From IMG/VR virus record IMGVR_UViG_2534681833_000010: a DNA stretch of 47,819 nt; one strand, given 5' to 3'. This stretch comes from a virus. Taxonomy: Duplodnaviria > Heunggongvirae > Uroviricota > Caudoviricetes. This document shows, in pieces, positions 31,978 through 37,074 of this stretch (positions are counted from its first letter, which is position 1; every line of letters starts with the position of its first letter). A program made the translations under genes and the position numbers. The notes beneath the pieces were generated by a model, which ran no database searches, was not told the DNA's origin, and worked only from the letters and a program-made list of their open reading frames with translations.

Positions 31978-32979
31978 TTAAGGCTTCGGCTTTTTATCGA
32001 GGCTCTTTCTAAGGATATGCCCAATCATCCTGTCGAGTTCTTCCTGTAGCTCTTTTGAAAGTCGATTAAACTCATAAGAAAATGCACGGCCTTTCACGCG
32101 CTTCCTTGCAAAGCGATCCTTGTCCTCAAATTTCCATAATTCAGTAACTACGGACTTATCTTTAGAACCTTTATCCGTGAGTAGTGAGGCTTCCTTTGTT
32201 ATCAAGCGCAGGATTTTATTTTTAACTTCATCTTCGGCCATTTCTTCAATGGATAAGATGTCGTTTATTTCCGGGGATATATTTTGAATAAGCTGATCAA
32301 ACTCTAAATTCTTGTTCCCCATTTCGTCGCCAACAGCACAAAGCGTTTTGTAGTCCGAAAAGGTTAATTCCGACTGCACAGGGAAAAGGGCGACTAATTC
32401 TTCCGGAGCACTCGCTGCCTGGAGAGCACGCGTGACCTTCGCCTGAGACAGCCCTTCTTTGGCTGCAATATCCTTCTGACTCATCCCATCATTTTTCATT
32501 CGCATCAAACGCAGACCTATTTCTCGAATGCTGTGCTGCAATGCTGTCTGAACGTCTTTCGCTAAATTTAGCGCTTCCTGAACGCTGATCTCCTGGTCCG
32601 TGACTAAAACCCGCAACCCTACGTTCTCTAAGATGGCAGAAGCTCGACGCCGGGAACCATCCAAAATTTCAATTTTCCCTGTTGCCCGTCTAACACCTAT
32701 TGCAGGGTAAAATTGCTGATGCTTAATAGTGCTTCGGATACTTTTTAATGATTTTGGCGTAAGAGATGCCTGGTCACGCCCGTTGTTATGCTGATCAACA
32801 AAGGTATCGCTTTCTACCTGGTTCGGAGGTATTACCTCTTCAATAAATGTGGCCTGGCGACCAGTTGATAACTTGAATACCTGCTCGACTCGATCGCCAG
32901 AGGCTGAAGAACTATCAAATCCGCTTAATATTGAAGGATTAAGGGTTCGCCCAATTGTTGGTCTGTTTTTCTTTGACAT
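31978..32979 (-). CDS. parB: partition protein ParB
   Basis: 333-aa ORF with ParB-type domain (..KIEILDGSRRRASAIL..), downstream of parA and adjacent to parS. Confidence 0.85.
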   Translation of the reverse strand: MSKKNRPTIGRTLNPSILSGFDSSSASGDRVEQVFKLSTGRQATFIEEVIPPNQVESDTFVDQHNNGRDQASLTPKSLKSIRSTIKHQQFYPAIGVRRATGKIEILDGSRRRASAILENVGLRVLVTDQEISVQEALNLAKDVQTALQHSIREIGLRLMRMKNDGMSQKDIAAKEGLSQAKVTRALQAASAPEELVALFPVQSELTFSDYKTLCAVGDEMGNKNLEFDQLIQNISPEINDILSIEEMAEDEVKNKILRLITKEASLLTDKGSKDKSVVTELWKFEDKDRFARKRVKGRAFSYEFNRLSKELQEELDRMIGHILRKSLDKKPKP

Positions 32980-32995: not shown

Positions 32996-34192
32996 TCAGT
33001 TAGATCTGATAAATTCAATACGGTCAAAAACTGCTTTAGCAAAATCTTCCGCGGCAATTCGCGCGTTCTTCAATGCATCAGCACTACCAACATACGTTGC
33101 CGGGTTAGCTGAAATAACAGTGTCAAAAGACTCGCCGCAACGTTCAAAACCGTCAAGGCGAGGGAGGACGACATCGAGCATATCCCCACCGAACACTTCT
33201 TTAGCCAGGCTATGGCAATACTTATGATCTGCCTTGTTACTCAACTTGGACATAAAACCAATGTTAGTCGCAAGCTGGCACTCGCAGCCTTCATCCGAAA
33301 TGAGTTTCACCAACTCAGGAAGGCGGGCAACGTATTTAAGCGATGAGTGGAAATCGACAGTTGCTGGCGGCAGAGGTGTAAACAGTATATTGGCCGAGGC
33401 CAAAGCATTTTTCAGGAAGGCGTCAAGGTGAGGACCACTATCAACGAGGATAAAATCATAATCGCTCTTCAGCTTATCAATCACATTTTCTTTCAGGACA
33501 GCATGGATGTTCTGACCCGGTAGATGCTCATTGCACAGCTCTCTCCAATCGGATGCAATAAAGGCATCGTCAATCGACGCAGGCATAACGTCAACCCCAG
33601 GTACAACAGAAGGAACAATAAACTCCTCTAACAGCTCTTCACGGCTTACATTCTGCAACATAGCCTGTGCAGATGTTGCGTTTACGATACCAATAGAGTG
33701 TTTATGGCTTAAAAACATCGTTGCTGAAGATTGCGGATCAAGGTCAATAACCAGAATCCTTAAATCTTCCATCAGAAGATGAGGGTGAGCACGCATTGCA
33801 TGCGCCAGAGAAACCGTCGATACAGTTTTTGACACACCGCCTTTAAGATTGGAGATGAAAATCACATACGCTTCGCTGTAGCGATCCCGGTATTTTGGCA
33901 CTCCGCGATGTTCATATATGTCAATGATGTTCTGAATTGACATCGCATATTTCATTGAAGAGCCAGCAGGGCGCTTATCGAAAACATAACCCTTTTCTTC
34001 CATTTCACTTACAGCATAGTCAACGTTCGCTCGAGTCAGTAGAGGCAATTTTGCCAGTGCCGCTTTCGCATAGACCTGGTAAAACTCGTTCGCGTGTAGC
34101 TCATCCTTTTGCAACTGTACTTGTTCAGTCAGAACATTGAGCATTCTATTTGCTCTTTGAGCAACCTTGTGAAGCTGGCTGGAATCACTCAT
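32996..34192 (-). CDS. parA: partition ATPase ParA (type Ia, with N-terminal DNA-binding extension)
   Basis: 398-aa ORF; deviant Walker A KGGVSKT; Walker B-like ..ILVIDLDPQ.. Confidence 0.85.
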   Translation of the reverse strand: MSDSSQLHKVAQRANRMLNVLTEQVQLQKDELHANEFYQVYAKAALAKLPLLTRANVDYAVSEMEEKGYVFDKRPAGSSMKYAMSIQNIIDIYEHRGVPKYRDRYSEAYVIFISNLKGGVSKTVSTVSLAHAMRAHPHLLMEDLRILVIDLDPQSSATMFLSHKHSIGIVNATSAQAMLQNVSREELLEEFIVPSVVPGVDVMPASIDDAFIASDWRELCNEHLPGQNIHAVLKENVIDKLKSDYDFILVDSGPHLDAFLKNALASANILFTPLPPATVDFHSSLKYVARLPELVKLISDEGCECQLATNIGFMSKLSNKADHKYCHSLAKEVFGGDMLDVVLPRLDGFERCGESFDTVISANPATYVGSADALKNARIAAEDFAKAVFDRIEFIRSN

Positions 34193-34336
34193 CGAAAGTC
34201 ATCCTTTATGCTGTATTTTTGAATTTAATTAAAAAAGCTGCATAAAATAATAATGTATGCGTAGATGCTTGTACATAGCATTCTCTGCGTGTTTGGTTCA
34301 TTTTGCACGATTGAGAGTTACAAGGAGGGCACAAAA

Positions 34337-34358
34337 AAGCCCCGTTCAGGGGCATCAG
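34337..34358 (-). terminator. rho-independent terminator ending the T5orf172 cassette
   Basis: Minus-strand reading GCCCCTGAACGGGGC followed by TTTTTTGT, just upstream of the par promoter region. Confidence 0.45.
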
Positions 34359-34360
34359 TG

Positions 34361-34621
34361 TTATTTGCTAAGAGCAGCGAATAATCGTTCGAAATCGATA
34401 GTATCTATAGCACGCGTAAGCGCCGGAAGTTCAGCCTCAAAGTACCCATGTCGATCGTAAAAGATGGGACCGAAGAGCGAGGCATGTTGGATTCTACTTC
34501 GCCCCAGCCCGGACACACAGTTAAGCCCATTACCGGCTAAAAGGCTAAAAAACTTCTCTGGATTATCGTGGTAAAGCTGGGAATCAATGGTGGCGGTTAA
34601 CTCTTCCATAGGGAAGCACAC
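34361..34621 (-). CDS. hypothetical protein
   Basis: 86-aa ORF downstream of the T5orf172 gene, same strand. Confidence 0.3.
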   Translation of the reverse strand: MCFPMEELTATIDSQLYHDNPEKFFSLLAGNGLNCVSGLGRSRIQHASLFGPIFYDRHGYFEAELPALTRAIDTIDFERLFAALSK

Positions 34622-34642
34622 CCGCCCTGTATCCCAGGGATA

Positions 34643-35170
34643 TTAAGTCCGAAGCATAAACATTGCTTTCAGCAATTCACACTGAGCGCGGATCGCGTCC
34701 GGTTCATAGCCAGATATGGAGACATAAGCCACGTCCCTCATTCCTGCGTCATCTTTGAAAGTCACGATAGAAGTAACATCCAGCTCTTTTTCGAAAGAGC
34801 AAGCAGCATCTACTGGACGCTGAAGTAAATCATTCGACTTAATGCGCTCGAGAATCCCTCCCCACATATCATTTAGATATTCGATATGAGCCAAAACCTT
34901 ATCAAGACACTCTCGTGTAAACCATTCAGTATGCCCGCCACCTGCGCTTTTCTCCCACGGCGCATTCCAGGGGAAAAAGGTTGCGTGTAAAGCCCGCTCA
35001 AGATTAACCATTGCCAAACGCGTACCACGATAGACCCGTGAAAGCGCAAAATCGGGACTCACTTGTAGCCCTTTAAACCGTGCCAATGGACCACATGAAA
35101 TGCCGATTTTAAAAGTATCTCCGTTCTCCGGCACCAGAACGTAGAGGTAGTGTTGTTTCTCTTCTTGCAT
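34643..35170 (-). CDS. T5orf172 / GIY-YIG-superfamily domain protein
   Basis: YLYVLV..GDTFKIGIS...R........E....H.......EWF arrangement typical of T5orf172 (MUG113) domains. Confidence 0.45.
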   Translation of the reverse strand: MQEEKQHYLYVLVPENGDTFKIGISCGPLARFKGLQVSPDFALSRVYRGTRLAMVNLERALHATFFPWNAPWEKSAGGGHTEWFTRECLDKVLAHIEYLNDMWGGILERIKSNDLLQRPVDAACSFEKELDVTSIVTFKDDAGMRDVAYVSISGYEPDAIRAQCELLKAMFMLRT

Positions 35171-35199
35171 ATCAATACCACTGCTTGATGAGAACCGCG

Positions 35200-35462
35200 C
35201 AAATGTTGACTATGCGCGAAAGTTAATGTGAATAGTTGACTATGCGCGATGTGACTACAGTCAAAAGTTGACTGTAGTCGATTTAACTCCACCAAAAATC
35301 GACTATGTAAGATATTGTCGGGAGAAACGTTGACTATACGCGATGAAATGACCCTAAAAGCCATCTCAATAGCGACTTGCAGAATATTGACGCCAGCAAA
35401 AATCCACCAGCGTCAACGAATGTCGCCTATAGTCAACTTCTCGCTATCGCATATAGTCAATA
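35200..35462 (+). repeat. incA-like iteron array downstream of repA (about 8 copies, both orientations)
   Basis: Repeats of GTTGACTATGCGCGA and variants (35205, 35235, 35267, 35329; inverted copies GCCTATAGTCAAC at 35425 and CGCATATAGTCAAT at 35447). Confidence 0.6.
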
Positions 35463-36404
35463 TTATGGATTGCGCTTATGGATCTGGAAGCCGATTTTCC
35501 TGCCGTTTTTTATCTCTGAAAATTTAAGATATTCAATAGCTTCCAAATCTTTCATAGCTTTTCTGATAACGCTATTTTGCACGCTAACGGATGATTTGAG
35601 ATTAAGCCTTGCTCTAAGGCGCTCAATGCTGACAGGTGCCGGGTTGGCGGGTAGAGCCTCAAAGAATGTATACAGCACCTTGGCCGTCTCTTTGCGCCCG
35701 AGCTTATCCAGCATCTTCAGCTTCAGGATTCGCTTATAGTCAACATAGTAAAGTTCAGATAGCTGTTTCTGCGGCTGGATCTCGATAACATCAAGCTCGG
35801 TATTCAGGCTGCTATATGCCAACAAGTTGACGTTAATGTTATTGAGATGACCTTTTGCCGCCGGGAAGCGGAATTTGACAACTGTCTGCTGAATGCGTGT
35901 CAGAGAGTCATCAATACTTTTACGGAACGCCTTTGAAAGGCGCTTACGTGGATAGCCGCATCGATCGGCAAACTCGGAGAATGGCAGGGTGATTATGCCG
36001 TCATCATCAGGTGCGTAGTCAAACAACGCGGAGGTTATGCCCACCCACACCTTAAAATCAGTATCCATATCCAGGCGTGGACCATGTATTTCAATTCCCT
36101 CATAGCCTTCCTGCTCAACAATTTTGAGGCTTGATAGTTCTTCGGTTGCGTTCGTTGTGTTTGTAGTAACTGACGATCCGCGACGTAGTGCCACATTGGT
36201 AGATTTTAAGGTTGGCACAAACACACCTAAGCGCAACAAAGCGATGGGTTGTATAGTGCTATTGTTATTGGGTTTCAGGCTGTGGATTTCTCCTGTATTT
36301 CCTGCAACTTCTTCAACGCTAAGGAAGCCTTTATTTTCTTCCGGCATCGTGGTTTCTCCATATGTGGCGCGGCCTGGCGTCATCTGGATTGCAGTTATCA
36401 ACAA
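35463..36404 (-). CDS. repA: iteron-binding replication initiator RepA
   Basis: Recalled RepA-family segments (QPIALLRLGVFVP, GPRLDMDTDFK, YTFFEALPANPAPVS); flanked by iteron arrays; true start may be the internal MPEENK. Confidence 0.7.
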   Translation of the reverse strand: MLITAIQMTPGRATYGETTMPEENKGFLSVEEVAGNTGEIHSLKPNNNSTIQPIALLRLGVFVPTLKSTNVALRRGSSVTTNTTNATEELSSLKIVEQEGYEGIEIHGPRLDMDTDFKVWVGITSALFDYAPDDDGIITLPFSEFADRCGYPRKRLSKAFRKSIDDSLTRIQQTVVKFRFPAAKGHLNNINVNLLAYSSLNTELDVIEIQPQKQLSELYYVDYKRILKLKMLDKLGRKETAKVLYTFFEALPANPAPVSIERLRARLNLKSSVSVQNSVIRKAMKDLEAIEYLKFSEIKNGRKIGFQIHKRNP

Positions 36405-36426
36405 CTGTGAATAGTCAGGCTCTAAA

Positions 36427-36528
36427 ATCGCGTACAGTCAATGTTTCTGTCGCGTATAGTCAACAATAAATCGCGTGCAGTCAACAATAAATCGTGCACA
36501 GTCAACATAAAATCGCGTATAGTCAATG
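36427..36528 (+). repeat. origin iterons (5 direct repeats, 21-22 bp spacing)
   Basis: ATCGCGTACAGTCAATG / GTCGCGTATAGTCAACAA / ATCGCGTGCAGTCAACAA / ATCGTGCACAGTCAACAT / ATCGCGTATAGTCAATG. Confidence 0.75.
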
Positions 36529-36530
36529 TT

Positions 36531-36638
36531 GATCCCATTTCAGGCCAGAAATGGCGCGGCTTACAGCGATCCGGGATCTTCTTTGGATCTTCCTAGGTTC
36601 TCTTTAGGATCTGTTTATTGGATCTATGCTGTGGATAA
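36531..36638 (+). promoter_or_regulatory. origin GATC cluster (6 sites in 94 bp) and DnaA box
   Basis: GATC at 36531, 36568, 36575, 36586, 36608, 36621; TGTGGATAA (TTATCCACA) at 36630-36638. Confidence 0.6.
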
Positions 36639-36681
36639 GTTGAATAAACCGGCCAATAAAGCCGGTTGGAAGGAAGCCGTA

Positions 36682-37074
36682 TTATTCTACGCTCTCGATA
36701 AGAAGACCATGTTCATAACATTTAAGCTCATCGCCTTCGTACAGGAATTGGTATCCAACACCACCATCTTCATGGACATTAGGGAATAACTCATAACTCA
36801 CTGAAGAGCAAATCACACCAATGCAGCGATCAACTCCTTCTCGTTCTTCAGTGCAGAAAAAATCCTCTTCGGTAAGAACATGAGTACATTGCTCATCAGC
36901 ATAGGTCGGAAATACATGCTCAATGCAATCCGGGTGTTTTAAACCAAGCTGATCGGCAAGCTCGAAAGCACGACGGTATTGTTCAGATCCTGGCTTGCCA
37001 ACAGTGATTTGCTCAATTTTGTAGATTGAAGTCGCTTTGTTGATAGTTTGCTTTACTGTTACTTTATCAGACAT
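36682..37074 (-). CDS. hypothetical Cys-containing protein
   Basis: 130-aa ORF with several Cys/His; last gene of the spanin/PAAR operon. Confidence 0.3.
   Translation of the reverse strand: MSDKVTVKQTINKATSIYKIEQITVGKPGSEQYRRAFELADQLGLKHPDCIEHVFPTYADEQCTHVLTEEDFFCTEEREGVDRCIGVICSSVSYELFPNVHEDGGVGYQFLYEGDELKCYEHGLLIESVE

Follow-up and report, generated by a model that had tools for sequence, protein, structure and literature searches.

A predicted T5orf172 nuclease gene, broken by a nonsense codon, is the last gene of the p0111-type replicon module of a P1-like phage-plasmid

The DNA analysed here (the window) is a stretch of 47,819 nucleotides of a virus of the Caudoviricetes (IMG/VR record IMGVR_UViG_2534681833_000010), and the locus in question lies on its minus strand, between an array of incA-like iterons and the promoter of the par operon. 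A preliminary description of this stretch, made from the letters alone, had placed a two-gene unit with its own terminator at this position, consisting of a 175-aa protein with a T5orf172 (GIY-YIG superfamily) signature and an 86-aa open reading frame (ORF). The placement between the iterons and the par promoter, the domain assignment and the presence of an intrinsic terminator directly after the ORFs all hold up, while the two ORFs are better described as the halves of one gene with the following features:

34361-35170, minus strand: T5orf172-winged-helix nuclease gene (predicted), whole frame of 269 codons and a stop, with an in-frame premature stop in the window
34916-35149, minus strand: T5orf172 (GIY-YIG superfamily) nuclease domain, residues 8-85
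34643-34645, minus strand: premature stop TAA at codon 176 (Lys176, AAA, in intact alleles), dividing the gene into the 175-aa and 86-aa ORFs
34361-34642, minus strand: 3′ remnant including the 86-aa ORF, coding for the predicted C-terminal winged-helix core
34329-34353, minus strand: intrinsic terminator GCCCC-TGAAC-GGGGC followed by TTTTTT (stem 34353-34339, five G-C pairs, T6)

The 175-aa ORF (34643-35170, minus strand) and the 86-aa ORF (34361-34621, minus strand) share one frame and together span 810 nt, which align without gaps and at 98.4% identity with the intact 269-aa coding sequence of RCS47 (NC_042128; gp090, WP_032247076); a single 269-aa coding sequence is likewise present in pMS6198C and in most relatives. 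The supposed two-gene unit is thus one 269-aa gene split by a nonsense codon, an AAA to TAA change at codon 176 (K176*), and the 86-aa ORF has no family or domain match of its own in Pfam. Separate translation of this remnant from a GTG at 34621 or an ATG at 34612 is not favoured, as no convincing Shine-Dalgarno sequence lies upstream of either codon. The gene itself is real and not a chance ORF, being kept as an open 269-codon frame with a ratio of nonsynonymous to synonymous substitution rates (dN/dS) below 1; in a cluster of 1241 distinct sequences, most of the listed members are 269 aa long. The terminator, a strong one of canonical form, sits directly 3′ of the gene, within a stretch without P1 homology; it was detected in the window type and in the related locus L007, and none was detected in the related loci L005 and L006, so it is not a conserved feature of the unit.

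The locus has been seen before. Venturini et al. reported "2 orfs inserted between repA and parA" in pSvP1 (PMC6906374), elsewhere it was named "unknown gene gp57" (PMC9603915), and database pipelines label the gene as a GIY-YIG nuclease family protein or a T5orf172 domain-containing protein. In the literature searched, no paper ties this gene of the P1-like phage-plasmids to T5orf172 or GIY-YIG. The gene is therefore real, already annotated and of a known kind, a T5orf172 nuclease like those of homing endonuclease genes (HEGs) that is broken in the window, and the published annotation is to be corrected from two orfs (PMC6906374) or an unknown gp57 (PMC9603915) to one gene that is often a pseudogene.

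The 175-aa product matches Pfam T5orf172 (PF10544) over residues 8-85 with 28.7 bits (E = 2e-6) against a gathering score of 20 bits, and matches MUG113 more weakly. Relatives were sought by an exhaustive HMMER search of 1.8 billion representatives together with three word-seeded searches, which yielded four full-length lineages, the window type (P0001), P0004 (44% identical), P0009 (28%) and P0011 (25%), and ~150 further proteins that match over the first ~100 residues only. Four family members score 25.1–27.8 bits against T5orf172, all above the cut-off. The motifs of the nuclease domain are Y8-L-Y10, K21-I-G23, R31, E58/H62 and E82-W-F; Y10, K21, G23, R31, E58 and E82 are invariant in the four-member family and, together with G79, nearly invariant in a 14-sequence alignment with 19–44% identity. 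We take the conserved positions to correspond to Y6, Y17, R27 and E75 of I-TevI, the GIY-YIG catalytic set. Mutating the equivalent glutamate inactivates the T5orf172 nuclease Odn (PMC8263062). The predicted N-terminal domain has the GIY-YIG α/β fold, and Foldseek against BFVD retrieves T5orf172 proteins. The whole frame gives a full-length match to PHROG 2876 (E = 8e-193), a family of 'unknown function', and its N-terminus also matches PHROG 681, a generic endonuclease. A search of the PDB with family profiles gave marginal matches (the GIY-YIG protein 1ywl, E = 1.1, and 2l9d, E = 0.29), and an NCBIfam scan gave no match. We infer that the intact protein is a sequence-specific DNA endonuclease built like the free-standing GIY-YIG homing endonucleases.

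Three distant relatives of the nuclease domain, from a phage and from chromosomal islands, stand in contexts without a link to a replicon. One distant T5orf172 relative, P0200, is encoded in a phage-like contig (L014:3160-11008), where it directly follows an SbcC-like ATPase; nearby is a ribonucleotide reductase with an intein that bears a LAGLIDADG endonuclease, a setting typical of homing endonucleases. Separately, a 197-aa E. coli plasmid protein (P0005) fuses an unrelated N-terminus of ~78 residues to residues ~105-221 of the nuclease protein, and this chimera suggests a rearranged copy of the locus.

The remainder of the protein was modelled with AlphaFold2 from four lineages (pLDDT 73.4), an earlier model from two sequences (pLDDT 52) having been unusable. 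The model comprises an N-terminal α/β domain (residues 1-110), a linker of low confidence (113-127) and a C-terminal domain (128-269) with a winged-helix fold, whose best long structural matches are the WH1 domains of Rep initiators; the top PDB matches in Foldseek include Rep WH1, RctB and RepE54. In the model the 3′ remnant encodes the helices at 188-211, the β-hairpin at 215-231 and the C-terminal helix, so K176* is predicted to take away the helix-turn-helix and the wing, which are the DNA-reading part of this domain. In the window the gene is most likely inactive. BLASTP found no similarity of the C-terminal domain to the RepA of the window or of P1, hhalign against a profile of five RepA members gave a probability of 0.2%, and neither the window protein nor four family members match RepA_N or Rep_3 in Pfam. 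At the level of sequence, then, a descent of this domain from RepA received no support from BLASTP or hhalign. As no homology to the P1-family RepAs is detectable by sequence, the modelled likeness to initiators would be one of shape, and common descent is not established. The C-terminal domain also diverges at roughly double the rate of the nuclease domain, with identities between lineages of 32% as against 63% in one pair and 29% as against 61% in a second.

The surroundings of the gene identify the window as a P1-like phage-plasmid which carries the replicon known to typing schemes as p0111, as do RCS47, SJ46 and JL22. Its replicon and flanks are laid out as follows:

36682-37074, minus strand: upfA, 96% identical to P1 upfA
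36423-36530: oriR iterons, five copies with 21-bp spacing, core as in the incA-like array
35463-36347, minus strand: repA, p0111/'RepFIB-like' iteron initiator (Pfam Rep3_C and Rep3_N)
35201-35461: incA-like iteron array, core GTTGACTATgCGCGA, in two orientations
34200-34294, minus strand: par promoter/operator region, where ~99% P1 homology resumes
32996-34192, minus strand: parA, protein 100% identical to P1 ParA; flanking backbone, outside the swapped module
31978-32979, minus strand: parB, protein 100% identical to P1 ParB; flanking backbone, outside the swapped module
downstream of parB in the window order, minus strand: major head gene 23

The repA gene, labelled RepA/RepB family in relatives, encodes 294 aa as annotated there, and its ORF could begin at 36404. 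The incA-like copies at 35201, 35231, 35263 and 35325 have one orientation and those at 35421 and 35445 the opposite one, and the ATG of the nuclease gene follows 31 nt past the end of the last iteron. On the minus strand, nothing resembling a terminator or a promoter was detected between repA and the nuclease gene; together with this short distance, the absence of such sites makes expression of the nuclease by read-through plausible. An extra iteron-like copy, ATTCGCTTATAGTCAAC, lies at 35728-35744 within the repA coding sequence. An Rfam scan of 33900-36800 returned only DUF2800, at 35167-35309 over the iterons, with 21.9 bits against a gathering score of 60.2 (E = 0.58), and was set aside as a chance match. 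The region is 100% identical to the plasmids NZ_CP122822 and pSvP1_F. In pSvP1_F (L003:5327-6891) the sequence is the same as in the window from parA to repA, and upstream of oriR there is an IS91-family transposase where the window has upfA, which makes NZ_CP122822 the better match to the window. A gene for a small PAAR-motif protein (38511-38795) stands beside upfB and is conserved in RCS47 and all of the related loci.

Compared with P1, the flanks of the window are near-identical and everything from oriR to 67 bp past the nuclease stop codon is replaced. RepA is 41–43% identical to that of P1 and the iteron core GTTGACTATgCGCGA is unlike P1's. Homology to P1 resumes at approximately 34294 (P1 reg 1685 aligns with 34294), which marks the right-hand breakpoint of the replicon swap. 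In line with the preliminary description, canonical P1 has no gene at this place, with ~190 bp from incA iteron 1 (61487) to the –35 element of Ppar (61296), and neither tblastn nor blastn-short found a gene remnant in this spacer, which is unrelated. The further suggestion of an accessory insertion into the P1 replicon was not borne out, as the whole replicon differs and the gene is constant in the swapped module. Since the module is exchanged as a block and P1 has neither an empty site nor a remnant, the 'cassette' is better seen as the gene that closes an alternative replicon module. The p0111 module, composed of the oriR iterons, repA, the incA iterons, the nuclease gene and the terminator, takes the place of P1's IncY replicon as one block.

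Two P1-like contigs, L005 (4700-8326) and L006 (4500-8252), represent a clean natural replicon swap. Their backbone proteins upfB, ppfA, ParA, ParB and gp23 are 98–100% identical, against 43% for RepA and 30% for the nuclease; the iterons are different, and homology resumes ~63 bp after the nuclease stop codon. In L006 (4813-6882) RepA is 83% identical to P1 RepA and the iterons are of the P1 type (ATGTGTGCTGGAGGG), yet a T5orf172 gene follows incA. The N-terminal domain of its nuclease groups with that of L007 (61%), whereas its RepA goes with that of P1 (83%, as against 45% for L007), both groupings involving large distances and four taxa only; global nucleotide identities between modules are near the noise floor, so that independent mobility of the gene is not demonstrable from them.

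In a search of a plasmid collection with the stretch from Ppar through repA, 392 of the 548 records cover the whole stretch, and the others match parA/Ppar alone and are IncY elements. By tblastn the gene is found in 397 plasmids, every one of them P1-like, and in 12 phage records, which without exception belong to the p0111 type; essentially every plasmid with a p0111-type repA (~395) carries it. Among complete E. coli genomes it is present in 412 of 5426, with a median of one copy per carrier, and is almost always plasmid-borne. Seven of the 421 gene-bearing places in E. coli genomes are chromosomal and may represent integrated P1-like elements or assembly joins. IncY replicons lack the gene and have 190 bp (with P1-type par) or ~115 bp (with P7-type par) at this position. 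Two loci (L019 and L020; NZ_CP114794 and NZ_MH781719) combine an IncY repA with a P7-type par operon (ParA 401 aa, ParB 321 aa), indicating that replicon and partition modules assort independently. P0004, P0009 and P0011 are each encoded at the same place, in the order iterons-gene-parA, in other P1-like contigs, and these three divergent homologues adjoin three different iteron classes. Several replicon lineages thus have a gene at this locus and canonical P1 and P7 have none, and in the family searches and the plasmid tblastn the full-length family is confined to this single locus of P1-like elements. Far from being invariant at this position, the gene varies across the P1 family (present in the p0111 type, L005, L006 and L007, absent in P1 and P7-type IncY), and it carries a nuclease-domain match.

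Close alleles of the nuclease gene have dN/dS values of 0.07–0.37, compared to 0–0.11 for repA and 0 for parA; the gene is constrained, though less so than its neighbours. Inactivation has nevertheless been frequent: at least six independent knock-outs were catalogued, K176* (the window and pSvP1_F), S112*, Q36*, a 2-bp deletion (E. albertii plasmids), an IS3 insertion and a 5′ deletion, and there are many truncated products among the protein clusters. A large collection has 264 contigs that encode exactly the 175-aa product of the window. Among 399 complete E. coli genomes carrying the gene, the K176* haplotype (exact 61 nt) is found in only 7, so most copies are intact. The gene is dispensable for maintenance of the plasmid and would be needed neither for replication nor for partition.

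The architecture of the intact protein, a nuclease, a flexible linker and a C-terminal DNA-binding domain, is that of the free-standing GIY-YIG/T5orf172 HEGs such as T4 I-TevI, the Seg proteins and the T5orf172 HEGs of ICP1 (PMC10448857). The genomic signatures described for phage T5orf172 HEGs are variable presence, adjoining essential genes, unstable alleles and a position at the edges of exchanged blocks (Barth et al. 2023, PMC10448857). Here we find variable presence, essential genes on both sides at the edge of a block exchanged among related genomes, a nuclease joined to a DNA-binding domain, and alleles repeatedly broken by stops, frameshifts and an insertion sequence. The faster divergence of the DNA-binding half, again as in free-standing HEGs, and a dN/dS below 1 yet above that of the neighbours point in the same direction. 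It is this HEG-like anatomy, together with genomic signatures that largely agree with those described (PMC10448857), that leads us to favour a site-specific endonuclease, acting on a related P1-like element with another module and either driving its conversion to the nuclease's own block or removing a competitor; we give this reading about an even chance of being right. The nuclease gene would probably be transcribed by read-through across the iterons from the RepA-autoregulated repA promoter, and the protein would probably cut a related P1-like element, co-resident or incoming, that bears a different replicon module. Repair of the break from the nuclease-carrying plasmid would then spread the whole repA-iteron-nuclease module; alternatively, the break may simply eliminate the competitor.

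Several observations weigh against this reading. Unlike for free-standing HEGs, no clean 'empty site' allele was found, the 190-bp spacer of P1 being unrelated, and the locus does not display a clean insertion; even in the closest comparison with a HEG-less relative (P1 with L006) the flanks are only ~76% identical. The swap could therefore be the product of ordinary homologous recombination in conserved flanks that carried the gene along as a passenger. Within the p0111 type the gene is fixed and not polymorphic, again unlike a HEG; most of its alleles are intact, with only a few of the sampled records split or pseudogenised, and intact alleles are as compatible with a useful function as with a selfish one. 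The window and L005 share an iteron core (RepA 84% identical, nuclease proteins 44%), yet their C-terminal domains are only 32% identical, suggesting that the C-terminal domain probably does not read the cognate iterons. Furthermore, the structure model is of moderate confidence (pLDDT 73) and comes from four sequences only, and co-transcription with repA was deduced only from the absence of simple consensus matches. The gene also differs from known HEGs in that its DNA-binding domain is a predicted winged helix, where theirs are of the Zn-finger, CapR, AP2 or helix-turn-helix type, and in that it resides in a plasmid replicon instead of a lytic-phage gene cluster.

The shape of the C-terminal domain raises a further possibility, namely that the protein is an origin-directed nuclease of the Odn type, whose winged helix mimics a Rep initiator and binds the iterons of rivals, or RepA on them, so that competing plasmids, phage-plasmids and satellites are destroyed; it would then be a weapon of incompatibility or exclusion and not a homing drive. 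Odn (ICP1 gp88) and the Odn-like T5orf172+RepA_N nucleases of coliphages join a nuclease to a domain resembling an initiator and are likewise tied to modular, swappable RepA/iteron replicons (Barth et al. 2021, PMC8263062), which sets a precedent for T5orf172 proteins that cleave origins at iterons by means of initiator-like DNA-binding domains (PMC8263062, PMC10448857). The co-variation of the gene with RepA/iteron modules and the Rep WH1, RctB and RepE54 matches, the latter at the level of the fold only, would agree with this. On the other hand, the domain order is the reverse of that in Odn, Odn is carried by the attacking phage and not within a replicon, and the C-terminal domain shows neither a RepA_N or Rep_3 match nor sequence homology to the P1-family RepAs; beside one and the same iteron type it is also only 32% identical between the window and L005. 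We consider this rival possible, though on balance improbable. Another candidate is a domesticated DNA-binding protein that is no longer a nuclease and instead binds near incA or Ppar and tunes the element's own replication control or par expression, much as CapR of the Vibrio PLE satellite (Netter et al.), a domesticated relative of the T5orf172 HEGs which a mobile element employs in inter-element conflicts and whose key property is DNA binding. The position exactly between incA and the par operator/promoter, fixation in every p0111-type replicon under purifying selection, and the repressor activity of which T5orf172 relatives are capable (CapR) speak for such a regulator. CapR, however, represses through a CapR-type domain, whereas the protein described here keeps its nuclease motifs, with equivalents of the GIY-YIG catalytic set retained across very divergent members, and has a predicted winged helix. 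The persistence of the knock-outs in otherwise complete plasmids, including the window allele on its 264 contigs, makes a housekeeping role unlikely, and IncY replicons with an identical par operon function without the gene. The original Pfam description of the T5orf172 domain as DNA-binding counts in favour of a regulator, and even so we regard this explanation as unlikely.

T5orf172/GIY-YIG domains occur in some defence proteins, for example the DUF4041-T5orf172 proteins, and phage-plasmids often carry defence cargo, so a nuclease for anti-phage defence or superinfection exclusion, cutting incoming DNA of unrelated phages to the benefit of host and prophage, also has to be weighed. The fast evolution of the specificity domain and the frequent loss of the gene are what one typically sees in defence genes. 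A link to known anti-phage systems, which the preliminary description had raised, was however not recovered: PADLOC-DB 2.0 gave no match at E ≤ 1 for the full-length protein or either fragment, to which the negative NCBIfam scan can be added. The gene lies inside the replicon module, outside the known variable cargo regions, its family is limited to one locus of P1-like elements, and it is a single gene without a partner, all of which render a defence role quite unlikely. Least probable in our view, and very unlikely, is a functionless passenger, a decaying relic hitch-hiking with a successful replicon. The many independent inactivating lesions and the broken copy in the window would suit it, yet dN/dS lies far below 1, complete genomes mostly carry full-length alleles, and homologues at the same locus keep the catalytic residues down to 25% identity. 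Two further comparisons place the locus. It shares with the canonical P1/P7 IncY replicon (oriR-repA-incA-parAB-parS) the order of five 21-bp-spaced oriR iterons, repA, downstream iterons and par, and differs from it by the additional 810-bp nuclease gene and terminator between incA and Ppar, where P1 has 190 bp and the P7 type ~115 bp. To the structure-specific nucleases with an SLX1/URI domain the similarity is at the level of the fold only (11–15% identity), and SLX1 is eukaryotic and partner-dependent.

What is new here is the correction to one gene, its membership in the replicon module, the homologues that occupy this locus next to other types of replicon, the initiator-like winged-helix C-terminal domain (as modelled) and the catalogue of independent knock-outs. 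If the gene is an ordinary selfish endonuclease, the finding is routine. A bolder and rather improbable proposal is that P1-like phage-plasmids carry an in-replicon nuclease which an initiator-like winged helix aims at rival replicons, and which is expressed from a RepA-controlled transcript when RepA is scarce, for example upon entry into a cell. If true, this would be a built-in 'replicon-war' device of P1-like phage-plasmids, and could explain both the displacement of the IncY replicon by the repA-iteron-nuclease block in most sequenced P1-like elements and the retention, at one and the same position, of a separate and rapidly diverging version by each of several replicon types. Elements of this kind are frequent vehicles of resistance genes in E. 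coli and Salmonella and are typed by their IncY and p0111 replicons. The p0111 replicon always brings with it a predicted site-specific nuclease that IncY is without, with equivalents at the same place beside other RepA types, making the gene a concrete, testable candidate for a driver of replicon turnover and competition among P1-like elements.

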